DNA of 64,000 nucleotides from an uncultured Ruminococcus sp. GTDB taxonomy: Bacteria > Bacillota > Clostridia > UBA1212. How positions within the stretch are numbered: the first letter of the stretch is position 1; every line of letters begins with the position of its first letter. A program made the translations under genes and the position numbers. Positions 2,949 to 54,149 of the stretch are shown here, piece by piece. Location: positions 72,441 to 136,440 of the forward strand of contig CADAZX010000001.1 of NCBI GenBank assembly GCA_902792515.1, given 5' to 3'. The notes below the pieces were generated by a model, which did no database searches, had not been told where the DNA came from, and saw nothing but the letters and a program-made list of their open reading frames with translations.

Positions 2949-2965
2949 GTTTTTTCTCCTTTTCC

Positions 2966-3078
2966 CGCGAAGTTACACAACCGTTCTTGTTTGCGCGAAG
3001 TTACGCAACCGTTCTTGTTTGCGCGAAGTCAAACGACCGTTCTTGTTTGCGCGAAGTCAAACGACCGTCTCTATAAAG
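2966..3078. repeat. Tandem 28-bp direct repeat (cgcgaagtyamacraccgttcttgtttg), about 4 copies. The last copy is degenerate and overlaps the stop codon of the 3057..6281 gene.
   Basis: Read directly: unit copies at 2966-2993, 2994-3021, 3022-3049 and 3050-3078, with 2-4 substitutions between copies. Confidence 0.85.
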
Positions 3079-14227: not shown

Positions 14228-14266
14228 CTCTGAAACGCGCCTGCTCTTTCTTCTGTAAAATCCGAT

Positions 14267-14391
14267 GTGTCTCCGCTTGGTCTCCGGTTTAGCTGCCGCA
14301 CTTACCTTAATTCAACGACGCCGCAGCTTTATGTTGGCGGCATGAACGATTCCGCGAAGCGGTCAAGTGAAGGACGCAACTTAAAGTGCGG
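14267..14391. repeat. Intergenic modular repeat, copy A (block X 14267-14295 plus hairpin block Y 14320-14391)
   Basis: Block X is near-identical to 25857-25887. Block Y is near-identical to 25941-26012 and to the reverse complement of 47030-47107. Y has a long imperfect stem enclosing ccgc-gaa-gcgg. Confidence 0.8.
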
Positions 14392-14619
14392 CTGATAATT
14401 TTAGTTGTGTCTACAGCCGGAAATCTGCTGTCCCGAAAATCTGCGCTCTGGAAACTGCAAAGTCCGGAGCTATTTTTGCGTGCGGTCGTCCGAAGCTGTA
14501 CGAAGGTACTGCGAGCGGCGACCTCGCGCAAAGCAGTTTGCCGGGCAATCGCCATAGGCCCCTTATTTTTATATTACAATTCGGCAAACTGCGTAAAGAG
14601 CCCGGAATCTGCAGTTTCC

Positions 14620-15224: not shown

Positions 15225-16562
15225 TTACTGACGGCGCGCGGTAATAACTATCTCTTTATCAGTTACGCTCTCGACTGTTCCGTCGATCGGAGAGTGGAGC
15301 GCGACGCCGAGGCTGGTTGCGGGGGTTGCCGCGATCAGCTGGTTTTTCGTCACCTCATCGCCCGCTTTAACGGAAGGAACGCACGGTACGCCGATGTGCT
15401 GCGAGAGCTTCAGGCGCAGGCGCGTGTATTTCGTTCCTGTCTCGGTGAGGGGCGCGGGAATGTCGTACCTGGAAAGTCCGAGCCTCGCGGTAAGCCTCTC
15501 CTTAGAGAGCATTCTGTGCGGTCTCGTCGCGGAAACGGGCTTCAGCTCCGCCTGTCCGGCCATCGCCACGCCGTGCTTTCTGAGACCTGCCTTGTACTCG
15601 TTGATGAGCGTTTTCGGCGAGAGGCCCTGAGGGCAGGCGTACATCTCGCATACGCCGCAGCCGCAGCAGTAAAGCGTCCCGAGGAACGGTTTCACGTTGT
15701 CCGATCTGAGGCTGACGCCGGCGGTCATAAAGTCGGCCGGTGATATCGGCTCGCCGAGAAGGTGGCGCGGGCAGAGATCCGAACACATGTGGCAGTTGCA
15801 GCAGACGGCTTTCGCCCTTCTGAACTGGAGCTTGATGTTCGGTCTGTGGTGCGTTACCACGTAGGAGTTGTCCGGGAGCAGAATGATGCTGCTCGTCGTC
15901 TTCGTCACAACTCCGTCGGGTCCGGTGAGCGTGCCCATCATCGGTCCGCCGCAGAGGTAGACCGGATTTTCGATCGTCGCGCCGCCGGCTGCCTCAACGA
16001 GCTCCGCGAAAGTAACTCCGAGCGGAACCTTGAGCGTGACGGGGTTCCTGACCTCGCCGCAAACGGTCACGAACTTTTCGGTGACAGGCGTGTCCGCGTG
16101 GATCGCGTTATATATGTTGAGCATCGTCTCGACGTTGTAAACAACGCACCCCACCGCGATCGGAATGCTTCCGGGCGGCACGACTCTGCCTGTTGTCTCG
16201 TAAATCGTCACAACCTCGTCGCCTGCCGGGTAGATCTCGGGCAGAAGGCCGATCTTGATGTGGCGGAACGACGAAAGATTCGCCGTGATCGCCTCCACAG
16301 CGCGTCCGTACGACTGCTTGATTGCGATAATGACATTCGAAACTTCAAGCGCATCTGCGACGTCCTCGAGCGCGGTCATGATCTCGTAAGCGTACTTTTC
16401 CATGACCTGGCGGTGCAGCTTGAGAAGAGGCTCGCACTCGGCGCAGTTAAGAATAACCGTGTCGGCAGACTTGTTGAGTTTGGCGTGCGAAGGGAATCCC
16501 GCTCCGCCGCAGCCGACGATGCCGTTGTTCCGCAATATTTCGATAAGCCTTGACAGTTCCAT
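15225..16562 (-). CDS. pduS: RnfC/NuoF-like Fe-S flavoprotein, PduS-like (cobalamin reductase / electron-transfer protein of microcompartments)
   Basis: GCGGAGFP NADH-binding motif, two 4Fe-4S Cys clusters (CCNCHMCSDLCP; CCGCGVCEMYACP), ~445 aa. Confidence 0.75.
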   Translation of the reverse strand: MELSRLIEILRNNGIVGCGGAGFPSHAKLNKSADTVILNCAECEPLLKLHRQVMEKYAYEIMTALEDVADALEVSNVIIAIKQSYGRAVEAITANLSSFRHIKIGLLPEIYPAGDEVVTIYETTGRVVPPGSIPIAVGCVVYNVETMLNIYNAIHADTPVTEKFVTVCGEVRNPVTLKVPLGVTFAELVEAAGGATIENPVYLCGGPMMGTLTGPDGVVTKTTSSIILLPDNSYVVTHHRPNIKLQFRRAKAVCCNCHMCSDLCPRHLLGEPISPADFMTAGVSLRSDNVKPFLGTLYCCGCGVCEMYACPQGLSPKTLINEYKAGLRKHGVAMAGQAELKPVSATRPHRMLSKERLTARLGLSRYDIPAPLTETGTKYTRLRLKLSQHIGVPCVPSVKAGDEVTKNQLIAATPATSLGVALHSPIDGTVESVTDKEIVITARRQ

Positions 16563-19692: not shown

Positions 19693-19927
19693 TTTCGTAA
19701 AATTCTCCGGGTTTTAATCTTTTCCTCCCCGCGGCAGTCCGCCGTTTTTAGGAAGGACGTTATTTTCTGCAGCGGGCATTCTCGAAAATCCTCAAACCGG
19801 GAATCCGGGAACGCTCTGCCGCTCATTCAAAGTCAGCCGGTCTTTTTAAGGGAATGCGCTCTTACGCTTGACATCAAATATTCGCCGCTTGCGTAAAGAG
19901 CATTAAATCTCTGCATTTCCGTGCCGG

Positions 19928-25829: not shown

Positions 25830-26027
25830 CGAGCTATTTTCGCGTGCGCGGACCCGCGTGTGTCTCCGCTTGGTCTCCGGTTTAGCTGGCGCTAAAAGTC
25901 GCCCTCGCGCGAGACGCACGCGATTCTACCTTATAAACGTCGACGCAGCTTGATATTGCGACATGAACGATTCCGCGTTAGCGGTCAAGTGAGGGACGCA
26001 ACATAAAGTGCGGACTGCGTAAAGAGC
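25830..26027. repeat. Intergenic modular repeat, copy B (blocks Z, X, Y, W), lying between the glycyl radical enzyme and its activase
   Basis: Z 25830-25851, X 25857-25887, Y 25941-26012, W (ctgcgtaaagagc) 26015-26027. The blocks match copies at 14267-14600. Confidence 0.8.
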
Positions 26028-28571: not shown

Positions 28572-28796
28572 GTCATTCCTCCGTACTTTTCCTTCAAGGG
28601 CGCGTTTTCCGCCCCCTGTCTCAGCTATATATCGTTTTAAAAACGCTTTTCATCTTTAGAAAGCTCTAATTTAACGGCAAACTGCGATAACAAGTATATT
28701 GTAACCCGTTTGCCGCTTGCGCAAAGAGCATTTAATCGGCGTTTCCTTCGGAAAATACCGCAAGGCATAGTAAGGCCTATTACGGAAACTACATAT

Positions 28797-30875: not shown

Positions 30876-31949
30876 TCAGTCTTTAAAACACAACCACATC
30901 GCGGGTCGGACACCGGTATCGAGTTGTTGCAGTAAGCCGCCGTATGCCGGCATAACGCCCGCCGGGTCAACGACTGCCATGCCCGAGGTCTTCTGCGGGG
31001 GGGCGAAAGGATTCGTCTGTTCCATGGCGTGCGCCGGATTGCGGGTCCACCAGTAGCTCGCGAGTTCACCGTCCGTGGTCTTATCATATTCCGCTACGTA
31101 CAGTCCCTTTGACTTAGCGTAAGGAGTCCCCGCGCACCTCCTTGCCTCGTATGAATTGAAATATGTTTCGACTTCGAGCATGCTCAGGAGAAATAACCGG
31201 TCGTATGTACTGTTTCCCGGGTCGAGATTGGGATCATCGGGATTTTCGGTATTCTTGTCCGCCGGAACATGCGAAAGTTGTATCGACGACCGCTCTTCCG
31301 GAGTGAACGCACCGTTGAGGAACGTACTGCTTAGCCACTCGCGCAGGTCGCACGTCTCCCATTTCTGCTTATCCTTGTCCGAGCCGGTGTTGACAGGCTG
31401 ACAATCGAGTATGTATTTGCTTACAAGAAGCGCCTTGTTGTCAGCTTTCTTCAAAACCAGCCATTCGATTTTTTCTTTCCCGTTGCCGGCGTTGTTGTCC
31501 TGCTCGTACGATCCGAATTTGATAATGTCGCCGGCCTTTAAATTTTTGTACACTGATAGTGACAGAGGATTAGGCGTCGGCGTAGGAGTAGGCGTGGGAG
31601 TCGGTGTCGGCGTGGGCGTCGGTGTCGGCGTAGGAGTAGGGGTAGGCGTGGGCGTCGGCGTCGGTGTCGGTGTAGGCGTGGGCGTCGGCGTACACTCTGT
31701 GGGGGCAATATCAAGCCAAGATCCTGTAGACGCAGGCGTCGGTTTCGAAGTAATCTCCGGCGTTATCTCCGGCGTGACTCCCTCCGTAACCTCCGGCAGC
31801 TTTGTGGCACCTGGCGTATTCAAAGCCGCAACCTCTTCGGTGTTCTGCGGCGGCGTGAAAGGCAGACAGCCCGCGAGCATTATAACGGCCAGAAGAAGAA
31901 CAGCCGGCAGTATTGCACGTTTCCGCCTCATATTCGTGGTGTTAAACAT
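30876..31949 (-). CDS. Lipoprotein with a (TP)n linker and a C-terminal DUF6273-like domain
   Basis: Start reassigned to MFNTTNMRRKRAILPAVLLLAVIMLAGC (RBS AAAGGAGG, lipobox LAGC). A (TP)30-type linker and a C-terminal GDIIKFGSYEQDN...IEWLVL...YWWTRNP...VRPAMWL domain follow. The upstream part of track ORF 30876..32123 is non-coding repeat DNA. Confidence 0.65.
   Translation of the reverse strand: MFNTTNMRRKRAILPAVLLLAVIMLAGCLPFTPPQNTEEVAALNTPGATKLPEVTEGVTPEITPEITSKPTPASTGSWLDIAPTECTPTPTPTPTPTPTPTPTPTPTPTPTPTPTPTPTPTPTPTPNPLSLSVYKNLKAGDIIKFGSYEQDNNAGNGKEKIEWLVLKKADNKALLVSKYILDCQPVNTGSDKDKQKWETCDLREWLSSTFLNGAFTPEERSSIQLSHVPADKNTENPDDPNLDPGNSTYDRLFLLSMLEVETYFNSYEARRCAGTPYAKSKGLYVAEYDKTTDGELASYWWTRNPAHAMEQTNPFAPPQKTSGMAVVDPAGVMPAYGGLLQQLDTGVRPAMWLCFKD
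31561..31700. repeat. Coding hexanucleotide microsatellite (GGCGTN)n encoding the (TP)n linker
   Basis: About 23 tandem units ggcgtc/ggcgta/ggagta/ggtgtc, read directly. Confidence 0.85.
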
Positions 31950-31975
31950 GTGATCGCCTCCTTTAAAATCATCAG

Positions 31976-32035
31976 TTTGGGAAGTATCAGTCTGAGAAGT
32001 ATCAGTTTGAGAAGTATCAGTCCGAAAAGTATTCG
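31976..32035. repeat. 15-bp tandem direct repeat (gaagtatcagtytga), about 3.5 copies, upstream of the lipoprotein gene
   Basis: ttgggaagtatcagtctgagaagtatcagtttgagaagtatcagtccgaaaagtattcg. Confidence 0.8.
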
Positions 32036-46355: not shown

Positions 46356-46892
46356 ATGAAAAAAACTCTCTTGATTATTAATGCTCTCGCGCTCGTTCTT
46401 CTTTTGGCGGTCACACTCACCGGCTGTTCTTTCCTGTCGCACCTGTCCGGCCTCGACAACGACGCGCCCCTCACGAGGAAGGACGGCACCGGCAACGCCT
46501 ACGTTACCGGCGGCAAGTCGCTCAACCCGCCCACGGCAGCGCCCGACGACGGTTCATCTGAGGATCCGTACCAGATACCCCAGATCGGAGGAGCGGAGTG
46601 GCCCGACAACGAATACACGAAGCAGGTTCCGAAGCCGGACTTCAAGCTGCTGGCGGTGTCTCTCGACGAAGAGGACGAATCGTTCACGGCGGCGTTCATG
46701 AACGCAACGGCTGAGGAGGTCAAGGCATACGCCGAGAAGGTCAAGGAGGCCGGCTTCACCGTCGACCCCGAGCTTCAGGACGAAACCGTCATGGGCATGA
46801 CGATCTACAGCTACACCGCCTCGAACGGGAACGGCTACACCGTCACCGTCAGCTTCACCGCCTCGACAGGCGCTTTGAAGATTTCGAAATAA
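46356..46892 (+). CDS. Lipoprotein (hypothetical)
   Basis: Signal peptide with lipobox LTGC. 178 aa. The next feature is a terminator. Confidence 0.55.
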   Translation: MKKTLLIINALALVLLLAVTLTGCSFLSHLSGLDNDAPLTRKDGTGNAYVTGGKSLNPPTAAPDDGSSEDPYQIPQIGGAEWPDNEYTKQVPKPDFKLLAVSLDEEDESFTAAFMNATAEEVKAYAEKVKEAGFTVDPELQDETVMGMTIYSYTASNGNGYTVTVSFTASTGALKISK

Positions 46893-46913
46893 GACTTGTA
46901 ACAATATGAGTTA

Positions 46914-46962
46914 GGGCGGCTCCCGCAACTGTTTCGGTTGCGCGGGGCCGCCCTTCTTTTCG
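46914..46962 (+). terminator. Rho-independent terminator of the 43991-46892 operon
   Basis: GGGCGGCTCCCGC...GCGGGGCCGCCC hairpin followed by ttcttttcgttt. Confidence 0.75.
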
Positions 46963-47029
46963 TTTATTCCGTTTTTTCAACTCAGGTAAACGCTGAGTTA
47001 ATAGCTATTTTTTCGAGCGCGACCCCGAA

Positions 47030-47107
47030 GCCGCATTTTATGTTGCGGCCCTCACTTGACCGCTTCGCGGAATCGTTCATGCCGCCAACATAAAACTGTA
47101 CGCGGCT
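47030..47107. repeat. Intergenic modular repeat, copy C (block Y in inverted orientation)
   Basis: The reverse complement of 47030-47107 aligns with 14320-14391 and 25941-26012. The W block (ccgcttgcgtaaagagcatttaatc) lies at 47238-47262. Confidence 0.8.
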
Positions 47108-47261
47108 CTACTGCGAAAGGGGAGCTCTCGAAAAGCAAGCGGCCAGCAATCGTCACAAGACACATTATTCTCTCTGGAGATAGTCGAAGTTAACGAACTA
47201 CGGTCAAATACGCCCATACGCTGGCTGTCAGATCTTCGCCGCTTGCGTAAAGAGCATTTAA

Positions 47262-47846
47262 TCAGCGTTTACACACGAAAAGCCCGTGCCTGTTGCAGTA
47301 CACGAAAAAGTACCTTGTCCCGTTTATGCCAAACCTCGCCTCGGCGGGTCCCTCGGGGTATAGTTTCTTCATCTCGCAGCAGTCGTCGCGAACCGCCGCG
47401 ATGAACGAAACGTAGTGGTTTTTCGTCATTTCATGGCCGGCCGTGACGAAATACTCGTCCTCGATCCGCTGAACCGCGACCGCATGGCCTTCGTCCGGGT
47501 CCGACGCCTCAAGCGGCGGAAGAGTGATCCCGCAGCAGCTGACCACCGCCTCGCCGACGCTTGTAATGACGTTCCCGCACACCGGGCACACGTAGAATTT
47601 CATTTTCAGCAGGTTGAAAGCCCTGTTTTTGTTGACAACGCCGCACCCCTTGAAGAGTTCGATGACCGACACTCCGAGCGCCGCCGCGAGCGGTTCCAGA
47701 AGCGTAATGTCCGGGTAGCCGCGTCCTGTCTCCCACTTGGAAACGGTTTTGTCGCTGACGAAAATCCTCTCCGCGAGCTGCGCCTGCGTCATCCCGCGCT
47801 CTTCCCTGAGGCGCTTGATCATAGTTCCGGTAACGTACTGATCCAT
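47262..47846 (-). CDS. XRE-family HTH domain fused to a desulfoferrodoxin-like (superoxide reductase) module
   Basis: Start reassigned to MDQYVTG (RBS AAGGAGGG). The N-terminus has a Cro/C1 HTH (MTQAQLAERIFVSDKTVSKWETG). The C-terminus carries a desulforedoxin-like CPVCGNVI...SCCG motif and a neelaredoxin-like HxxH...H...YCNRHGLF iron site. Confidence 0.6.
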   Translation of the reverse strand: MDQYVTGTMIKRLREERGMTQAQLAERIFVSDKTVSKWETGRGYPDITLLEPLAAALGVSVIELFKGCGVVNKNRAFNLLKMKFYVCPVCGNVITSVGEAVVSCCGITLPPLEASDPDEGHAVAVQRIEDEYFVTAGHEMTKNHYVSFIAAVRDDCCEMKKLYPEGPAEARFGINGTRYFFVYCNRHGLFVCKR

Positions 47847-47957
47847 AGCCGTCCCTCCTTTCGGAAACATGATACAACGCGCGCGAAAACGGCGCAACCT
47901 GCGCTTCGTAGAGTTCGCGAACCGGAAGTTAAAAAGCCGGAAGTTTTCAACGTGTTT

Positions 47958-48365
47958 TCAAATATCCGGAAAACCGTCTGCGTCCTCCGGGTCTTCATCC
48001 GCCCCGTCCTCAGCCGCCTCATCCTCATCCTCCAAAGCCTCATCCTCCGGAGCCTCGTCCGCCGCCGAAAACAGCCCCTCGACGATCGTTTCCGCGTCCC
48101 CGAGCCGGCTGAAAAACACGTAAAACCGCACTCTTTCGCTCATCATGCCGGTCTTGAACGCCAGCCCCGCGCCGAGAACGTTCCGCTCGACAAACTCGAT
48201 TCCGTTCTGTTTGAGAACGTCCGCCAGAAGACCGCTCCAGATAACGTTCTGCTCCGTCAAATAGCAAAGGTCGTCGTCTTTTGCCTCGCGGCATTTTTTG
48301 CGCCCGCACGAGGGGCACCGCTCTCCTTCAAAAGCCAAAAAACAGTTATCGCAATAAAGAGGCAT
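47958..48365 (-). CDS. Small zinc-ribbon / DUF2007-like protein with an acidic C-terminal tail
   Basis: Start reassigned to MPLYCDNCFLAFEGERCPSCG (RBS AAAGGTGG). Two CxxC pairs. The C-terminal ~45 aa are Asp/Glu-rich. Confidence 0.45.
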   Translation of the reverse strand: MPLYCDNCFLAFEGERCPSCGRKKCREAKDDDLCYLTEQNVIWSGLLADVLKQNGIEFVERNVLGAGLAFKTGMMSERVRFYVFFSRLGDAETIVEGLFSAADEAPEDEALEDEDEAAEDGADEDPEDADGFPDI

Positions 48366-48437: not shown

Positions 48438-48965
48438 TCACTCCACGAAATAGATCCTTCCTTCTCTTCTCTTAACCGGCTTCGGCGCCTCTCCGTCAAT
48501 AAAGCCGACAGCGCAGTGGCCGATTCCCTCCCACTCGCCTTCGATCCCGAGGTCCTTCAAAAACCGCTTATACTCCGGCATTTCGAACTCCTCCTTCGCC
48601 CTGTGGATCCAAATGCTGCCGAGACCGAGCGAGTGCGCCGCGAGCATCAGGTTGCCCATGACGAGGCTGCCGTCGTACTTGTACGTCGGGTGGTTTTTGT
48701 CGGCGAGCACGACTATGATGACCGGCGCTCCGTAGAACGGGTCGAAGCCCTCCGGCCAGCCGCCTATCTTCCTGTTTGCGTCGGAAAGCCTGTCGCGCGC
48801 CTCCTTGTTTGTGATCGCCACCGTGATAACGGGCTGTCTGCCCATTCCGCTCGCGGCGTAAAGACCCGCGTCCAGAATCTCTTCAATATCCTCTTTGGCC
48901 GGCATATCCGGCTTGAATTTTCGAACGCTCCTGCGCTCCCTGATCGCTTTCAATACTTCGTTCAT
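48438..48965 (-). CDS. Nitroreductase-family protein
   Basis: RRSVRKF FMN-binding N-terminal motif, ~175 aa. Confidence 0.85.
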   Translation of the reverse strand: MNEVLKAIRERRSVRKFKPDMPAKEDIEEILDAGLYAASGMGRQPVITVAITNKEARDRLSDANRKIGGWPEGFDPFYGAPVIIVVLADKNHPTYKYDGSLVMGNLMLAAHSLGLGSIWIHRAKEEFEMPEYKRFLKDLGIEGEWEGIGHCAVGFIDGEAPKPVKRREGRIYFVE

Positions 48966-49023
48966 TTCGTCATCCCCTTATAAAAATCCAATTCGGTCAA
49001 AATCAAGTCAAAACCCGCCGTTT

Positions 49024-49590
49024 TTACGCGCCTGTTCCGGTCAGCTCGATGTCCGCGGCGTAGGGCTTCATTCCCTCGATGCAGATCTCCGCGAGCGTCG
49101 CGACGTCCATCCCGAGCATCCCGCACCCGCGCTGAATCAGCTCCCTGTCGCACTTCGCGGCAAACTTTTTGTCCTTGAACTTCTTCATAAAGCTCTTCAC
49201 CTCGAGGTCGGAAATACCGTTCGGCCGCATTCTCGCGCACGCCTGAATGATTCCCGTCAGCTCGTCGACGGCGAAAAGGCTCTTTTCCATATCGGTAACG
49301 GGCTCCACGTCGCTGCAGATCCCGTACCCGTGGCTCATAATAGCCCGGACGTCGTCCGCGTCGACGCCCTCCGCCAGAAGCTCCTTTTCGGTGTGTTTGA
49401 GGTGCTCGTCCGGATATTTTTCGTAGTCGTAGTCGTGAAGGTAGCCGACCGCCATCCAGTGTTCGCGGTCCTCTCCAAAATGGTCCGCCATCGCGCCCAT
49501 CGCGTACATAACGTTTTTCGCGTGGATCACGAGGTGATGTTCCGTCACCTCGCGGTCGTTAAGCTCCTTCGCGCGTTCAAGTGTAAGCAT
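49024..49590 (-). CDS. HD-domain phosphohydrolase
   Basis: Start reassigned to MLTLERAKEL (RBS GAGAGGGGAAG). HD motif H...HD in (VIHAKNVMY...YLHDYDYEKY). Confidence 0.75.
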   Translation of the reverse strand: MLTLERAKELNDREVTEHHLVIHAKNVMYAMGAMADHFGEDREHWMAVGYLHDYDYEKYPDEHLKHTEKELLAEGVDADDVRAIMSHGYGICSDVEPVTDMEKSLFAVDELTGIIQACARMRPNGISDLEVKSFMKKFKDKKFAAKCDRELIQRGCGMLGMDVATLAEICIEGMKPYAADIELTGTGA

Positions 49591-49626
49591 CACACACTTC
49601 CCCTCTCTAATTACAAAAATCAAAAG

Positions 49627-50112
49627 TTATCTCTTGCGGCCGCCCGCAGGCCCGCCGCTTAAAACAGAAGTCAGAAGCCCCTCGCACCCCTCAGAAATGT
49701 CGTCCCACGCCTCGTCAAAATTCCCGGTGTACCACGGGTCGGCGACCTCCTGCCCTTTCCGGCCTGTAAAATCGAGCAGCAGAACAATCTTGCCCTCCGG
49801 GTCGCCGCCCGCGATTGCGGTCGCGTTCCTGACGTTGGCGCGGTCCATGCAGACGATGAGGTCGTAATAATCGTAGTCCTGTCTTGTCATCCTCCGTGCG
49901 TGATGACCCGCACAGCCAATTCCGTTTTCGGCAAGCTTGCGCCTCGCGGGGGGATAGACCGGATTCCCGATTTCCTCATAACTTGTCGCCGCCGACGCAA
50001 TCTCGAACCGCGCCTCACACCGGCGGCGTTTTACAAGATCCTTCATCAAAAACTCCGCCATCGGGCTTCTGCAGATGTTGCCGTGGCAGACGAACAGTAT
50101 TTTTAATGACAT
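49627..50112 (-). CDS. Low-molecular-weight protein-tyrosine phosphatase
   Basis: The CHGNICRSP P-loop (CX5R) is at the N-terminus and a DPWY loop lies further on. Its first 10 codons are duplicated at 51798-51827. Confidence 0.9.
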   Translation of the reverse strand: MSLKILFVCHGNICRSPMAEFLMKDLVKRRRCEARFEIASAATSYEEIGNPVYPPARRKLAENGIGCAGHHARRMTRQDYDYYDLIVCMDRANVRNATAIAGGDPEGKIVLLLDFTGRKGQEVADPWYTGNFDEAWDDISEGCEGLLTSVLSGGPAGGRKR

Positions 50113-50135
50113 TTTTCTCTCTCTTTATTCTTTTA

Positions 50136-51467
50136 TCATTTACTGCGCAAATAGTCTTTTAAGAGAAACACAAGATAATGAGGGAATGATCGTATATTAC
50201 CTTCCACACCGATATTACCATCAATCAATTTGATGCCAAAGTGAATATCCGGATATGAATCACTCTTAATCAATGTACGGAGCGATTTACTATTTCCGTT
50301 TCTGGCCTTAACCTCTACCGGAATAAGGGTTTCAGTATTACGAACAAAGAAATCTTCTTCTAAAGTAGAGTTTTCTTTTGAATAATAATACAGGTCAAAC
50401 CCTGCCTTAACCAGCATATCTCCTACTATATTTTCATATAGTCCCCCTCGATAGGTTCCTATGTTTTTGCGGCTTCTCAGATCCTCCTGAGTTTCATCGT
50501 CAAGCATTGCAATCAGCAAACCGGTATCTGCCATATAAATCTTGTATTTTGTTTCATCATAGTTCCCCTTAAGGGGAAGTTCAGGGTAATTCAAGCAATA
50601 ACACACATTGATGATCCCGGCATTTGACAGCCACTCTATTGCCCCTCTGTAGTCCTTAAACCTGGCGCCTGAAGCAACTTTACTGATCTGGAATTTTTTG
50701 TTTTCTTTTGCTAACTGAACCGGTATATGTCTGAATACATTAAGAATTCGGCTTTGGTCCAATCCTTCCGCATATTTTGTAATATCCTCCTCATAGTCGG
50801 ACAATAGTTGCCTTTGAAGCTCCAATGTATTTGAAAACATACCGTTTCTGACATATTCCAAAACTACTGCCGGCATTCCTCCAACTATTACATAATCCAA
50901 AAAAGCTTCCGCCATAACCTGTACCAATGAAGCCTGTAGCGGAGTTCCGTCCTGCATTGCTTTAAAAAGATCTGCCTTCAATCCGTCATCATAACCTTTG
51001 GCCCATAAAAACTCTTCAAAATCCAACGATCTCAAAGTGTAATCGGTTTTATATCCAACACTATTGCTCTCAATCTTCTTGTAATAAACTCCAAGCAACG
51101 AGCCGCTGCAAATCACATCATAACGCCTGTCAATGCAGTATGCCTTTAGTGTGGTTGCAATGTCCGGATGATCTTGTATTTCATCAAAAAAAATCAGAGT
51201 TTTTCCCTCAATAAATTTCTTAGAAGGATCTATCCGGCTGATTGCTTTATTGACTGTCTCCACAGTGTATCCATCTTCGGTGATTACGCAATATTTCTTC
51301 TCCAATGCAAAATTGATATATATGATGTTGTCATAAAAACCTTTAGCGAAACGCATTATACTTTCGGTCTTCCCAACCTGTCTGGCACCTTTAATGATCA
51401 ATGGCTTTCGGTTCGGGTTTTCATGCCACTCACTTAAGATTTTATCCACCTTACGCTTTAAGTACAT
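50136..51467 (-). CDS. AAA+ ATPase with a DUF4143-type C-terminal domain (AAA_14/DUF4143 family)
   Basis: Start reassigned to MYLKRKVDKI (RBS GAGGAGG). Walker A GARQVGKTE and Walker B IFFDEIQ. Low GC. Confidence 0.75.
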   Translation of the reverse strand: MYLKRKVDKILSEWHENPNRKPLIIKGARQVGKTESIMRFAKGFYDNIIYINFALEKKYCVITEDGYTVETVNKAISRIDPSKKFIEGKTLIFFDEIQDHPDIATTLKAYCIDRRYDVICSGSLLGVYYKKIESNSVGYKTDYTLRSLDFEEFLWAKGYDDGLKADLFKAMQDGTPLQASLVQVMAEAFLDYVIVGGMPAVVLEYVRNGMFSNTLELQRQLLSDYEEDITKYAEGLDQSRILNVFRHIPVQLAKENKKFQISKVASGARFKDYRGAIEWLSNAGIINVCYCLNYPELPLKGNYDETKYKIYMADTGLLIAMLDDETQEDLRSRKNIGTYRGGLYENIVGDMLVKAGFDLYYYSKENSTLEEDFFVRNTETLIPVEVKARNGNSKSLRTLIKSDSYPDIHFGIKLIDGNIGVEGNIRSFPHYLVFLLKDYLRSK

Positions 51468-51896
51468 AATAGGACCTCCTCTCAATCTAAATAGTATTAT
51501 AGAGCAACAGCGATAATTTTTCAACTATTTTATGAGCGAGTTAGTCGCGGGTTTTGCATTTTTATGAGCGTGTTTTTATGTTCCCACACCTTTTTATGTC
51601 AAAAAAGGCCTCGCCGCATCACAGCATCACAGCAAAGTCCTAAAAACCGCTTGTATAAAATTTAATGTATATAAAAAATGTTGTATTGGAGTCCGTATTG
51701 ATTGGTTACTTAAGGGTGCAATTAAGGTGCAAACTCACGATCAAAACAGCTCTCAAAGCTTGATATTTAAGGCTTTTCACCGCTCGGTTGGTAGAGTGCC
51801 GTGGCAGACGAACAGTATCTTAATCATATCGTTTTCATGTTTTATCGGGGTTTGGATGCCTTTCTATACCCGGATTCCTGCATTATTAATTATCGT

Positions 51897-53195
51897 TTAT
51901 CTTAATACTGCCCATTTCCCGGTTTTATTTCCACCACGACGTTCAATCACCTTTTTCCTCTTTAATGCTGCAAGTATTTTTCTTATATATCCGTCAGAGT
52001 ATCCACTTGCAGCAACCATTTCCTTTATCGTGATACCGGAATTATGACTTATATAATCGATAACTCGCCGCTCCGCATCATTAATACTGATTTTATTATC
52101 AGGCTCAGTTACACTATTGTCATTTTTCTCATAATTAAACGGAATAGTTACATTAACAAAGTTCTCCGTAATATCAAAAGCCTGCTTTCCATAATTACTA
52201 ATTATAAGAGGAACGCCATGACCTGTTTGTTCCACGTATCCCAATTGACCGAATATCTTTTGAAGTTTGGAATTAACCGGCTTACTTATTCCTTTGAAAA
52301 ACTCTTCCTTATTTAAATCTACAGGTAATCCTCCCGTAGAAATGATTTCTATTCTATCTGAAAAAACGTAAACCGCCGGTGGATTCCCTTTTATCCATTT
52401 CGTATGAATACATGCATTTTGCCAAGCTTCTTTAAAACTGGCCATGTCAAAAAGTCTTTCTTCTATTCGTCTGTGATTGCCCATCGTGACCATAGTTTCA
52501 TTAACGGATTCCATGTAATCCAACACTCTATCCATAGCGGTAACGAGACATGTTCCTCCGTATTCGTTTCTCTTTATTAGAACTGTCTTATCTTTTCCTG
52601 CAAAAGTAACCACTTTGATTGAGATGTCATTTTCGTCAGCAAGCAAAAAAGCCATTAGATTATACTTCCCATCGCTGTTTTTCAGCCCGGTATTATCTTC
52701 GAAAGTTGTTTGGTCGACTGTCAGCCCCGCCGTTACAAAAGCAATTTTGAGTTTATTAAAAGTAAGCGTCTGAACAGGCGCCGGAACCAAAGTCAAAACA
52801 TCTGATGATGCTTGTCTGTCTATTAACTCCTTTAATGCTGTCGGACTCAATTCTCTATCTTCATCCGCAGATCGCATATAATAGCGTCCATATGCCGAGT
52901 ATGGTTTTTCAGAGCCACGTACTTCAATCTTAATTACGTTTTTATCATCTATCAATCCATGTTCTATAATTGGTATAATCTGCGGTTTAATGAAATTTGC
53001 TATTGCCTGGGATATTTCTCTAAGCGTTCTATCACCCATTTGTTGACCAACTACGTCCCCATTGTCCTTAACCCCAAAATACAGAATTCCATATCCATTC
53101 TTGTTGAGCATAGAAGCCAATGAAGTGATTCCTTCCCGGAGTTCTCCCGTTGTCCTCTTAAACTCTATTTTTTCAGTCTCCACTCCTATATTCAC
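51897..53195 (-). CDS. AlbA_2 / Schlafen-like divergent AAA domain protein with a C-terminal wHTH (putative ATP-dependent DNA-binding regulator)
   Basis: Probable GTG start (RBS AGGAGG) giving MNIGVETEKIEFKRTTGEL. The N-terminal AlbA_2-type motif (ESE.IEFK) and the C-terminal GYIRKILAALKRKKVIERRG HTH-like segment are present. Low GC. Confidence 0.65.
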   Translation of the reverse strand: MNIGVETEKIEFKRTTGELREGITSLASMLNKNGYGILYFGVKDNGDVVGQQMGDRTLREISQAIANFIKPQIIPIIEHGLIDDKNVIKIEVRGSEKPYSAYGRYYMRSADEDRELSPTALKELIDRQASSDVLTLVPAPVQTLTFNKLKIAFVTAGLTVDQTTFEDNTGLKNSDGKYNLMAFLLADENDISIKVVTFAGKDKTVLIKRNEYGGTCLVTAMDRVLDYMESVNETMVTMGNHRRIEERLFDMASFKEAWQNACIHTKWIKGNPPAVYVFSDRIEIISTGGLPVDLNKEEFFKGISKPVNSKLQKIFGQLGYVEQTGHGVPLIISNYGKQAFDITENFVNVTIPFNYEKNDNSVTEPDNKISINDAERRVIDYISHNSGITIKEMVAASGYSDGYIRKILAALKRKKVIERRGGNKTGKWAVLR

Positions 53196-53512
53196 TGCTC
53201 CACGCCTCCTAAACATCAATTGTTGGATTTGAACAGTTTTTCGCTTGCTTGGTCAGCTAACTGCTCTCCGCTATTTTGAATTATACTCCATTTGCTTTCT
53301 TTTTGCTACTCTTTTTTGCCACTTTATTTGCTACTTTATTTGCCACTTTAATTACTACCAACCCGGGTTTCTTTTCAACATCTGCTGCCGTTGCCATAAA
53401 AGAAACTAACCAAATAAGTACCGTTTCTTAAATACCCGGCTTTATATCGCCGCAGGTATAAAGAAACAGCAGCCGGAACGAACAGAACCCTCATCATAGA
53501 ATCAAATTCCTA

Positions 53513-53953
53513 TCAATCAAGCTTCGCGAGCTCCTCCGGATCGTCCTTCGGCTGGCAGAGGTGGATTATTTTCGCGTCCGGGTACTCTTTTCTCAAACGT
53601 TTGTCGGCGTTTTTCGCGAAGCCGCTGGCGCTGTAAAGAACGAACGTCAGCTTTTTCCCGGAAAAATCCGTGTCCCTGAGGACCGTGTTAACGGGGCTCG
53701 CGAGACGCGCGTTCCAGACAGGTGCGCCGACCCAGACCTCGTCGTAGCCGCTTACGTCGCTGTCGTAGCCCTTGAGCTTCGGTTTCTGTCCGATTCCCGC
53801 CGAGAAACCGCCCTTCAGCAACTGCGGAAGCAGCTTTTTGCTGAGCGTGAACTCCGATTCGACTTTGCGGAGCTCGAAACCTTTTTCGGCGAGTTTTGCG
53901 GCGACCGCGTCACCGTTTCCGCTGAAACTGTAGTAAACGAACAACTTTGCCAT
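53513..53953 (-). CDS. Flavodoxin-family protein
   Basis: MAKLFVYYSFSGNGDAVAAKLAEKG N-terminal FMN-binding loop, ~146 aa. Confidence 0.75.
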   Translation of the reverse strand: MAKLFVYYSFSGNGDAVAAKLAEKGFELRKVESEFTLSKKLLPQLLKGGFSAGIGQKPKLKGYDSDVSGYDEVWVGAPVWNARLASPVNTVLRDTDFSGKKLTFVLYSASGFAKNADKRLRKEYPDAKIIHLCQPKDDPEELAKLD

Positions 53954-54149
53954 GGTATATTGCCCCTTTCCTCAGGCTGAAATCATTTTTGAACCCTTTC
54001 CGTTCATATCTAATTGTATAAGTTTTCCGGTGTTTGTCAATATCCCACGCGACGTTCACGCGACGTTCACGGCCTAAAAAGCTGTTCCAAAAAGCGCTCG
54101 AATGTGATATCATTGGCTCATCCATCAAAAACCGGGAGGAGACCTTCAG

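Follow-up and report, generated by a model that had tools for sequence, protein, structure and literature searches.

Proteins in which an N-terminal helix-turn-helix (HTH) is followed by a desulforedoxin-like Cys4 centre and a superoxide reductase (SOR) His4Cys centre were named as the 'HTH-Dx-SOR' class in the SORGOdb database in 2011, which comprised 19 proteins without an assigned function (Lucchetti-Miganeh et al., BMC Microbiol 2011, PMC3116461). No functional study of, or experiment on, any member was found in the searchable literature. The iron-binding part of these proteins is to be compared with the canonical desulfoferrodoxins (2Fe-SORs), whose motif reads (E)(K)H with the spacings H-x19-27-H-x5-H-x40-63-C-x2-H (PMC11980386); work on the D. 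baarsii enzyme ties the Glu-Lys pair (Glu47/Lys48) to catalysis. On the DNA-binding side, the XRE/Cro-C1 repressors (P22 c2, phage 434 repressor, DdrO, ClgR) likewise have a five-helix HTH_3 domain and a short palindromic site at their own promoter, whereas the partner domain in HTH-Dx-SOR is a two-iron redox module and not a peptidase, oligomerisation or toxin-antitoxin domain. A likeness in concept extends to SoxR, PerR, FNR and NsrR, in which a single polypeptide combines a metal or cofactor centre with the DNA-binding domain, and to the trigger enzyme PutA, which represses its own operon according to redox state. These regulators have no sequence or fold relationship to HTH-Dx-SOR, and we know of none among them that uses an SOR-type Fe(His)4Cys site or a desulforedoxin centre.

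Here we describe an HTH-Dx-SOR gene in a 64-kb stretch of DNA from an uncultured Ruminococcus sp. (hereafter the window; Table 1). The family itself has been known and catalogued since 2011 and is uncharacterised; what is new is a conserved candidate operator at the gene's own promoter.

Table 1. Features of the HTH-Dx-SOR locus, in window coordinates
Feature	Position	Strand	Description	Basis
HTH-Dx-SOR gene	47262..47846	-	194 codons + TGA stop (47262-47264)	ORF list
SOR (neelaredoxin-type) centre II domain	47265..47513	-	residues 112-194; His121/His138/His144/Cys184/His187	PDB alignment and fold match
Desulforedoxin-like centre I domain	47514..47603	-	residues 82-111; Cys87/Cys90/Cys104/Cys105	aligns to Dfx residues 5-36
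Interdomain linker	47604..47648	-	residues 67-81; G..V.N.NR.FN.L	alignments of relatives
XRE/Cro-C1 helix-turn-helix domain	47649..47828	-	residues 7-66; five helices	Pfam HTH_3 and model
Shine-Dalgarno AGGAGG	47854..47859	-	7 nt before ATG	read from sequence
Inferred -10 hexamer TATCAT	47869..47874	-	17 nt after -35	read from sequence
Inferred -35 hexamer TTGCGC	47892..47897	-	directly abuts operator	read from sequence
Candidate operator TCTACGAAGCGCAGG	47898..47912	-	centre ~43 bp upstream of inferred transcription start	family consensus TCTACGnnnCGTAGG

An XRE domain fused to a divergent desulfoferrodoxin-type module

The gene is an uninterrupted open reading frame on the minus strand that opens with ATG at 47846 and encodes a 194-residue product. 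Relatives share the start position of this protein (MNQYVTG...), and their aligned upstream regions keep an aagggg/AGGAGG signal at the Shine-Dalgarno position. A longer version beginning at TTG 47897 was rejected: this codon overlaps the -35 hexamer, and the relatives use the ATG with its strong Shine-Dalgarno sequence. Judged by its sequence, the product is an HTH-Dx-SOR member in which an XRE HTH is joined to a divergent two-iron desulfoferrodoxin-type module, its place in the SORGOdb clade being read from the shared three-part architecture.

The preliminary description had assigned the N-terminal ~65 residues to a Cro/C1-type HTH, and Pfam HTH_3 indeed matched residues 10-64 well above its cut-off (E 2e-15, 57 bits versus 23). 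The AlphaFold2 model of the whole protein (pLDDT 91.5) consists of five helices (residues 7-16, 21-28, 32-39, 47-57 and 61-66) followed by a beta module, so that the HTH of the SORGOdb class is present both as a family match and as a five-helix fold. Foldseek placed the domain close to P22 c2, the 434 repressor and DdrO (TM 0.84-0.88), and a SKWE.G...PD motif is kept in the alignment of relatives.

The desulforedoxin-like and neelaredoxin-type motifs proposed for the remainder of the chain are both present, with all nine iron ligands, in the patterns C87-x2-C90-x13-C104-C105 (centre I) and H121-x16-H138-x5-H144-x39-C184-x2-H187 (centre II). The centre I spacer is 13 residues long, as opposed to x15 in canonical Dfx and in the SORGOdb motif CXXCX15CC, with all four Cys in place; the five centre II residues line up with H49, H69, H75, C116 and H119 of D. 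baarsii SOR and supply the four His and one Cys of the class. In a phmmer search against the PDB, residues 82-190 matched positions 5-122 in the desulfoferrodoxin chains of D. baarsii and D. desulfuricans, which are 126 residues long (E 2.6e-10 to 1.3e-8), identity to canonical desulfoferrodoxin being just 26-28%. Superposition of the predicted beta module on solved SOR structures gave TM values of 0.76-0.79 and an rmsd of 2.2-2.8 Å, with Foldseek matches to 2ji1, 2ji2, 1dfx and 1vzg (E 1e-10 to 2e-9, TM 0.76) and to 1y07 (TM 0.79), and the model thus contains the Dx domain and the immunoglobulin-like beta-sandwich of the Dfx fold. Compared with the canonical 2Fe-SORs of D. baarsii (2JI1) and D. 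desulfuricans (1DFX; TM 0.76, rmsd 2.7-2.8 Å for the predicted fold), the protein is collinear and alike in its nine ligands, but differs by small deletions (the x13, x16 and x39 spacers), by a Lys-to-Gly replacement and by the added 66-residue HTH and linker.

Curated models gave a more reserved picture. TIGR00320 (dfx_rbo) was matched over positions 4-122 of 125 with an E value of 4.7e-14, but at 52.7 bits versus a cut-off of 146.9; PF01880 scored 15.5 bits (cut-off 22.2) and PF06397 14.1 bits (cut-off 23), so that the 194-residue protein reaches none of these three cut-offs for canonical desulfoferrodoxin or 2Fe-SOR. PF01880 was found at E<=0.01 in 49 of 86 family members. SOR similarity was picked up by TIGR00320, by the PDB sequence search, by the fold and, in those 49 relatives, by Pfam. 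The canonical (E)(K)H motif with its spacings is absent from the protein, in which the spacings are x16, x5, x39 and x2 and the first ligand is preceded by Glu119 and Gly120 (E119-G120-H121 in place of E-K-H). The module had been called a complete desulfoferrodoxin: this stands as far as end-to-end alignment, predicted fold and the nine ligands are concerned, and is qualified by the sub-threshold Pfam and TIGR scores and by Gly120 at the position of the Lys.

All four centre I Cys recur in 119-120 of 120 close relatives and the centre II ligands in 117-120 of 120, which implies that both centres are selected to bind metal; in divergent members, His187 is replaced by Asp in 8 of 35 and Cys105 by His in 4 of 35. 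Position 120 is Lys in a single one of the 120 relatives, and the Glu of the pair is found in 57. As the Glu-Lys pair is not conserved, catalysis by the SOR module may be impaired or altered.

The fusion is genuine. The protein (P0001) occurs with 100% identity on four public, independent contigs; the best 120 database matches are all of ~194-221 residues with a query coverage of at least 98%, and the genomes of at least 80 species contain full-length orthologues, among them Clostridium sp. ASF356 (a complete chromosome, NZ_CP097810.1), Treponema bryantii and Butyrivibrio isolates such as Butyrivibrio sp. MB2005. The pairing, initially thought uncommon, is abundant in gut and rumen anaerobes and had its class name as early as 2011. 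Within the linker, G67 hardly varies, and two alignments show relatives to share the pattern of this segment, which speaks against a chance or frameshift junction. Stand-alone 116-residue Dx-SOR-like forms of the same subfamily, with their own promoter, also occur, and such genes could in principle have been joined by a frameshift or in assembly; with orthologues that are not always split, a conserved linker and identical independent contigs, the probability of such an artefact is negligible, and we regard it as already refuted by the contigs and the at least 80 genomes. Plasmid and phage collections yielded a handful of matches annotated only as 'helix-turn-helix domain-containing protein'. 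Two candidate homologues were rejected: OseR of C. difficile belongs to the unrelated Spx/YusI family, and TrtA of Treponema denticola is a 104-residue XRE protein without an SOR module.

A conserved palindrome next to the inferred promoter of the gene

The -35 element of the promoter in front of the gene is directly preceded by a 15-bp palindrome, TCTACGnnnCGTAGG, in 75 of 76 genomes; in the 76th the palindrome lies one gene further upstream, before a two-gene operon. The two half-sites, CTACG and CGTAG, have their centres 8 bp apart. The promoter was inferred from a comparative alignment of upstream regions: T(T/A/G)G stands at the same position after the palindrome in the 74 aligned loci, and the full succession of palindrome, TTG, 17-nt spacer and TAnnnT is found in 65 of the 74. 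A generic promoter scan did not call this promoter, whose -35 hexamer matches only 3/6 bases. A site that abuts the -35 with its centre near -43 resembles the arrangement of lambda cI at OR2/PRM.

The search for further sites took in the 64-kb window of this genome, 12-kb flanks elsewhere and exact-consensus matches in metagenomes. In the window, the 23-nt matrix scored 28.7 bits at 47893-47915, the sole site of at least 10 bits, and no second site of at least 13 bits was found in 810 kb of flanking DNA; a double operator-like match in one locus (L147) lies antisense inside a coding gene and was judged to be due to chance. Exact 17-mer matches in metagenomes (n=120) lay directly upstream of an HTH-Dx-SOR gene in 66 cases, ~4 more preceded HTH-Dx-SOR genes cut by contig ends, and the remainder fell mostly in coding-region, high-GC DNA. 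Promoter-type sites in these metagenome matches stood at about 70 self to 6 non-self.

Gene and palindrome occur together across phyla (among them Bacillota, Spirochaetota, and MAGs labelled Coriobacteriaceae and Riflebacteria). In distant members (39-46% identity) the layout of the cassette is kept and the half-sites are changed symmetrically, as in Monoglobus (CAAACGgagCGTTTG-TTGTGC-17-TATAAT), which is what is expected if a dimeric regulator co-evolves with its own site. The palindrome in fixed register with the promoter and the symmetric half-site change strongly suggest a DNA-binding, regulatory role for the protein, as the preliminary description had proposed, and on this comparative evidence it probably controls its own synthesis.

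The same observations bear on the view that the protein is an enzyme only, with a structural HTH-like domain and a palindrome that belongs to an unlinked regulator. A precedent exists in HppE, HEPD and MPnS, which also have an XRE-like helical domain fused to a mononuclear non-haem iron domain and whose HTH-like domain has, to our knowledge, no regulator role; their whole-chain Foldseek similarity to our model is weak (TM about 0.3), their iron domain is a cupin and not an SOR beta-sandwich, and they are phosphonate-metabolism enzymes without an associated operator. Set against the bona fide HTH_3 domain, its closeness to operator-bound repressors with the SKWE.G...PD motif kept, and half-sites that change together with the protein across phyla, we consider an enzyme-only reading very improbable.

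Partner genes and possible modes of action

All-against-all clustering of the ORFs within 4 kb in 80 genomes revealed no neighbour family conserved in more than seven loci. By targeted tblastn, an FMN_red/Flavodoxin_2 gene was found in four lineages, either in operon with the fusion gene or close behind it, with both gene orders represented; such a gene also adjoins a decayed additional copy of the fusion, and in another contig it lies directly behind the operator. Three non-self genes behind the operator, encoding chloramphenicol acetyltransferase (four contigs) or an LCM methyltransferase (one contig), are not oxidative-stress genes. The idea of a regulator with an oxidative-stress regulon was not borne out in the DNA scanned, in which the main conserved target is the fusion gene itself, though a regulon of dispersed, weaker sites may exist. 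The small zinc-ribbon protein with an acidic tail, earlier taken for a divergent neighbour, is encoded upstream at 47958-48365 on the same strand and co-directionally; it matched no Pfam or NCBIfam family and was rejected as a part of the system, being absent from the recurrent neighbour clusters of other genomes.

The reading that we favour, and to which we give an even chance, is that of an autoregulated iron protein whose DNA binding is set by the redox state of its iron centres. One polypeptide would carry an Fe(Cys)4 and Fe(His)4Cys module tethered by the conserved linker to the XRE HTH; it would dimerise via the SOR module, as desulfoferrodoxins do, and the dimer would bind the palindrome next to the -35 of its own sigma-A-type promoter and, by virtue of this position, mainly control its own synthesis, with its control extending in some genomes to an FMN-reductase-like flavoprotein or to a few further genes. 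Superoxide or O2-derived species would oxidise the centres, a flavoprotein or rubredoxin-type donor would re-reduce them, and oxidation or ligand state would set the affinity for DNA, in the sense of repression or of activation, such that the amount of protein follows the oxidant load. We infer superoxide or redox state as the signal from the conserved iron ligands and the recurrent flavoprotein partner; the latter, an FMN_red-like protein encoded in the same operon, is also the one indirect hint at a putative superoxide reductase activity with a physiological electron donor. Since the only conserved target is its own gene, the protein is probably also an effector (a scavenger or reductase) and not a pure signalling factor.

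A further step would be a trigger enzyme, that is, a (partly) working superoxide reductase of strict anaerobes in which the catalytic iron reports oxidant flux to the fused repressor or activator domain, the scavenger being made to demand and reset by the FMN-reductase-like flavoprotein. We regard this version as possible, though doubtful.

Rather unlikely, in our estimate, is a pure sensor-regulator in which the SOR module has been repurposed without useful catalysis, a dispersed oxidative-stress regulon lies outside the scanned DNA and autoregulation is a side feature. The loss of the second-sphere catalytic residues (the Glu47/Lys48 equivalents) and the sub-threshold scores against curated SOR models would suit it, as would the extent of the scan and the occurrence of the same operator at a few non-self promoters. 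The preponderance of self over non-self sites and the lack of a second site in the flanks or in the window are at odds with such a regulon, and centre I, which is the electron relay in 2Fe-SORs, is conserved as strictly as centre II; moreover, the stand-alone versions with their own promoter imply that the module functions without any HTH.

Improbable, too, is a Fur-like metal sensor that, through reversible binding of Fe(II) or a different metal at its His4Cys site, reports metal availability instead of redox state. Iron-uptake genes were not found behind the operator, and what recurs as a partner is a flavoprotein reductase rather than a metal transporter. Directly downstream in Monoglobus there is a gene for a ZIP metal transporter, but in this one locus only, in neighbourhoods that are not conserved; what agrees with reversible binding are the conserved His/Cys ligands and the solvent-exposed mononuclear site.

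Gut and rumen strict anaerobes are regularly exposed to oxygen, and this very widespread family unites a putatively superoxide-reactive iron site and a DNA-binding domain in one chain. With a predicted exact operator at a defined promoter position, a predicted self-regulatory circuit and the FMN-reductase-like flavoprotein as candidate redox partner, a database category of 15 years' standing becomes open to testing. If redox-controlled DNA binding holds true, the protein would be a new type of sensor beside SoxR, PerR and FNR and would account for the tuning of oxidative defence in many anaerobes; if it does not, the protein is an ordinary member of a known uncharacterised family. Should the trigger enzyme described above be real, Clostridia and spirochaetes would possess a transcription factor that senses superoxide/O2 directly, by means of a metal site for which no role in gene regulation has been known.

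Flanking repeats and the rest of the window

No second copy of the fusion and no canonical SOR were detected in the window by tblastn; in light of this result, a 36-nt similarity between 15340-15375 and 47416-47451 was attributed to chance. With Rfam, gathering thresholds gave no match anywhere in the window, and a cut-off of E<=1 gave none in 46880-47980; no tRNA genes were found. Repeated DNA, noted earlier at the 3' end of the gene, is indeed present there: a 26-nt motif (47238-47263) starts within the stop codon and has three copies in the window versus 0 expected by chance. It is accompanied by a second repeated element of ~70-140 nt (47029-47170), which recurs at 14266-14393 and at 25859-26013.

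Domain architecture and predicted fold of the HTH-Dx-SOR protein

The HTH-Dx-SOR gene, which joins an HTH domain to a desulfoferrodoxin-like two-iron module, is a single open reading frame (see the table of features). A longer reading from a TTG at 47897 was rejected as spurious, since a Shine-Dalgarno sequence precedes the ATG and the relatives start at the same MNQYVTG position. In Pfam searches, HTH_3 matched residues 10-64 above its gathering score (E 2e-15), and Desulfoferrodox (15.5 bits) and Desulfoferrod_N (14.1 bits) matched weakly, both below their cut-offs. The NCBIfam desulfoferrodoxin model TIGR00320 aligned over positions 4-122 of 125 with residues 81-190 (E 4.7e-14), its 52.7 bits lying far under the equivalog cut-off of 146.9. 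In a PDB sequence search, the D. baarsii and D. desulfuricans enzymes aligned collinearly, over their residues 5-122, with residues 82-190 (E 2.6e-10 to 1.3e-8), and all nine metal ligands were matched: Cys87, Cys90, Cys104 and Cys105 of centre I, the Fe(Cys)4 site, and His121, His138, His144, Cys184 and His187 of centre II, the Fe(His)4Cys site. An AlphaFold2 model made with 86 relatives as input (mean pLDDT 91.5) predicted five helices (residues 7-66) and, after them, a module made up entirely of beta structure (83-193). By Foldseek, the helical domain resembled P22 c2, 434 repressor and DdrO (TM 0.84-0.88), and the beta module resembled solved superoxide reductases (SORs; TM 0.76 for 2ji1, 2ji2, 1dfx and 1vzg, 0.79 for 1y07). 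Domain matches, ligand alignment and predicted-fold superpositions thus bear out the initial observation of an HTH domain and a desulfoferrodoxin-like module on one chain.

The preliminary description had called this module a complete desulfoferrodoxin, which holds for the nine ligands, the collinear alignment and the fold, and goes too far in view of the sub-cut-off Pfam and TIGR00320 scores, the spacers and one active-site residue. The spacers (CxxC-x13-CC and H-x16-H-x5-H-x39-C-x2-H) are shorter than those of canonical 2Fe-SORs, which are x15, x19-27 and x40-63 (PMC11980386). Gly120 occupies the Lys position of the canonical Glu-Lys-His motif; among 120 close relatives, Lys is found there in one and Glu at the preceding position in 57, and the nine iron ligands are retained in 117-120. 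A D. baarsii study listed among the references of SORGOdb reportedly examined how Glu47 and Lys48 contribute to catalysis. SORs naturally without the canonical Lys or Glu, such as the Ignicoccus hospitalis enzyme, are said to be still active, so that loss of the pair alone does not exclude catalysis, and we regard retained catalysis by the fusion protein as possible, if somewhat less likely than not. Lys142, between His138 and His144, is near-invariant in the family alignment and, as a matter of speculation, might substitute for the missing Lys.

Distribution and earlier record of the fusion

The same protein (100% identity), with the same neighbours, was present on four independent public contigs. 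The best 120 database matches were all 194-221 aa long, with 98-100% query coverage and 66-100% identity, and the named ones were mostly called 'helix-turn-helix domain-containing protein'. In one-genome-per-species GTDB contigs, where 596 candidate relatives were found by an HTH peptide pattern and some may be HTH-only, the 80 best loci were all full-length orthologues (54-73% identity). Their hosts, most of rumen or gut origin, included Oscillospiraceae, Ruminococcaceae, Lachnospiraceae (with Butyrivibrio isolates), Mogibacterium, Erysipelotrichaceae, Treponema (T. bryantii and strain C6A8) and Clostridium sp. ASF356, the last as a complete chromosome. With four contigs in agreement, a conserved interdomain linker and these 80 loci, the fusion is genuine, and the probability that an assembly or frameshift artefact joined two genes is negligible.

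Queried alone against 1.84 billion cluster representatives, the C-terminal 125 residues matched 1044 clusters (E<=1e-3), 449 of which reached E<=1e-10; the best 150 matches included 35 complete HTH fusions, 15 stand-alone proteins of ~116 aa and many fragments. Stand-alone Dx-SOR-like genes of 116-118 aa, of the same divergent subfamily and without HTH, occur for example at 341-697 of relative contig L204 (protein P0184); the promoter of the one that was examined was its own TTGAAT-17-TATAAT, with no clear palindrome.

The pairing, first described as uncommon, is abundant in gut and rumen anaerobes, and had been catalogued in 2011 by SORGOdb as the class 'HTH-Dx-SOR', with 19 proteins of exactly the same architecture and no function assigned (PMC3116461). 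The fusion protein is a new member of this known, uncharacterised class and would not surprise an SOR specialist. Full-text literature searches yielded no functional study of HTH-Dx-SOR; OseR and TrtA proved to be unrelated proteins, not characterised homologues. A homologue, second in gene order behind a 117-aa ORF, also occurs on NZ_CP154629.1 (PLSDB, L207), a 2.63-Mb Acetoanaerobium noterae replicon filed as 'plasmid' with 4 annotated features, which is chromosome-sized and may be mislabelled.

A palindrome at the promoter and a candidate autoregulatory circuit

In an alignment of the orthologues' upstream regions (250 nt each), nearly all contained TCTACGnnnCGTAGG followed directly by T(T/A/G)G. 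Of 76 such regions, 75 had a site by a 23-nt matrix (consensus AACTCTACGAAGCGTAGGTTGCT); in the remaining genome (Lachnospiraceae NC2008, L060) it lay 762 nt upstream, before a two-gene operon. The sole site of at least 10 bits in the window was that at 47893-47915 (-), with 28.7 bits, and no other of at least 13 bits was seen in the 810 kb of flanking DNA of the loci fetched to that point. The distance between the palindrome and a sigma-A-type promoter is fixed: TTG and TAnnnT follow it, separated by 17 nt in 65 of 74 loci. The -35 of this promoter is weak (median 3/6 matches), and TG stands at -15/-14 in 38 of 74 loci. In the window the palindrome is centred ~43 bp upstream of the inferred transcription start, a geometry that suits autorepression by occlusion of the -35 and equally autoactivation by class-II or lambda-cI-like contact with RNA polymerase. 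To our knowledge, the motif is unlike the Rex, PerR, LexA, CIRCE and CRP/FNR boxes.

The palindrome accompanies the HTH-Dx-SOR gene across phyla, and none was seen elsewhere in the scanned DNA. Metagenome contigs scanned for the exact 17-mer CTCYACGAAGCGTAGGT returned 120 loci: 66 directly upstream of an HTH-Dx-SOR gene, ~4 more alike but cut by contig ends, ~40 inside high-GC coding DNA, which we took to be chance matches, and only six of promoter type before other genes. Distant members (39-46% identity) kept the cassette layout with altered half-sites, as in Monoglobus pectinilyticus (CAAACGgagCGTTTG-TTGTGC-17-TATAAT, where both arms carry two symmetric substitutions), L213 (CCTACcgagaGTAGG-TTGCCC), L211 (TCTACGctgCGTTTG-TTGCAA), L209 (TCTACGgagCGTGGA-TAGGCT) and Acetoanaerobium noterae (TCTACGgagCATGGA-TTGTCC). 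Symmetric co-variation of this kind, between a palindrome and the HTH gene beside it, would be expected of a dimeric autoregulator. In light of the co-occurrence, the 17-mer counts and the co-variation, we infer that the fusion protein binds the palindrome, and consider DNA binding with autoregulation probable. That the protein is an enzyme whose HTH-like domain plays no regulatory part, in the manner of HppE, is highly improbable beside a site that varies together with the HTH gene.

Other genes also stood behind the site. Chloramphenicol acetyltransferase (PF00302) followed a complete cassette in L094, L113, L151 and L149, the fusion gene being absent from that place, a case of promoter capture or of a resistance gene under trans regulation; an LCM-type methyltransferase (L130) and an FMN_red/Flavodoxin_2 flavoprotein of ~226 aa with a CRGCFxC motif (L192) followed promoter-type sites. 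A gene of this flavoprotein type lies 3 nt before the fusion gene in L060, 14 nt after it in Clostridium sp. ASF356 (L067), overlapping its end in L138, ~213 nt after it in L056 and, in L211/L212, directly after an eroded second copy. The latter (66-248 of L211, also in L212) is a 60-aa ORF made of the first ~31 and last ~28 HTH-Dx-SOR residues, an internally deleted remnant 10 nt before the flavoprotein gene and ~1.25 kb upstream of an intact fusion gene. The 64-kb window holds no such partner gene, and no other conserved neighbourhood of HTH-Dx-SOR was found. The flavoprotein reductase might plausibly pass electrons to the iron centres or serve as a co-regulated detoxifier.

The conserved self target, the strict selection on both centres, the stand-alone modules and the recurring reductase-like partner are best fitted by a self-regulating desulfoferrodoxin-type iron protein, a model to which, taken whole, we give an even chance. 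The HTH would bind the palindrome at its own promoter, DNA affinity would shift as the iron centres change redox or ligand state, synthesis would track oxidant load, and the protein itself would probably also be the effector; redox coupling falls just short of an even prospect. The redox-sensing transcription factor first proposed stays a plausible hypothesis, in a more specific form. A pure sensor with an undiscovered regulon could accommodate the few sites before other genes and is rather unlikely next to the prevailing self target; a metal sensor, compatible with the retained ligands, is improbable beside the recurring reductase-like partner. The candidate operator, the flavoprotein partner, the putative autoregulatory circuit and the loss, across the family, of the Glu-Lys pair are additions of the present analysis, not found in the searchable literature, and decisive experiments on this widespread family can now be designed.

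Neighbouring genes and repeats in the window

Positions of the HTH-Dx-SOR gene, its promoter elements and other features of the window
Feature	Position	Strand	Remarks
HTH-Dx-SOR ORF, uninterrupted	ATG 47846, TGA 47262-47264	-	194 aa
Shine-Dalgarno AGGAGG	7 nt before ATG at 47846	-	read from sequence
Candidate operator core	47898-47912	-	read from window sequence
-35 TTGCGC	47892-47897	-	inferred
-10 TATCAT	47869-47874	-	inferred
Co-directional string upstream of zinc-ribbon gene	48438-50112	-	low-molecular-weight phosphatase (LMWPc), HD-domain protein, nitroreductase
Terminator-like hairpin after nitroreductase gene	48427-48398		
AAA_14 + DUF4143 ATPase	50136-51524	-	within low-GC island
Schlafen AlbA_2 + HATPase_c_4 + winged-helix protein	51897-53219	-	within low-GC island
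Flavodoxin_4 gene	53513-53953		
26-nt motif GATTAAATGCTCTTTRCGCAAGCGGC	47238-47263	-	begins within TGA stop of HTH-Dx-SOR gene
26-nt motif GATTAAATGCTCTTTRCGCAAGCGGC	19884-19909	-	~19 nt after stop of 406-aa (-) ORF
26-nt motif GATTAAATGCTCTTTRCGCAAGCGGC	28712-28737	-	
Dispersed intergenic element	47029-47170	-	~70-140 nt
Dispersed intergenic element	14266-14393	+	~70-140 nt
Dispersed intergenic element	25859-26013	+	~70-140 nt

The zinc-ribbon neighbour, taken in the preliminary description to be divergent, lies upstream of the fusion gene on the same strand (47958-48365, -). Its 135-aa product, which has a CxxC...CxxC zinc ribbon at the N-terminus and whose tail is strongly acidic, matched no Pfam or NCBIfam family, and the gene was not among the recurrent fusion-gene neighbours in other genomes. 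The three copies of the 26-nt motif in the window, at <=1 mismatch, compare with 0 expected by chance; the motif is probably part of the 'W repeat' noted earlier at the 3' end of the gene. In the dispersed element a long conserved hairpin (UUUAUGUUGGCGGC...GCCGCAACAUAAA) surrounds an inner CCGCGAAGCGG hairpin. Rfam returned nothing for it with the threshold relaxed to E<=1, and the element may represent a small RNA or a repeat of REP/MITE type; the 372-nt spacer after the fusion gene has, as a whole, a folding z-score of -4.0.

Positions 50001-54000 form a low-GC island (0.39-0.42, vs ~0.57 elsewhere) that looks like horizontally acquired DNA. GC-rich tandem repeats of short period (12/18-nt and 15-nt), at 31548-31703 and 31971-32030, probably code for a low-complexity, repetitive stretch of protein, and a tandem array at 2957-3068, with ~four copies of the 28-nt unit TCTTGTTTGCGCGAAGTTACGCAACCGT at 80-100% identity, resembles iterons or a set of repeated binding sites.
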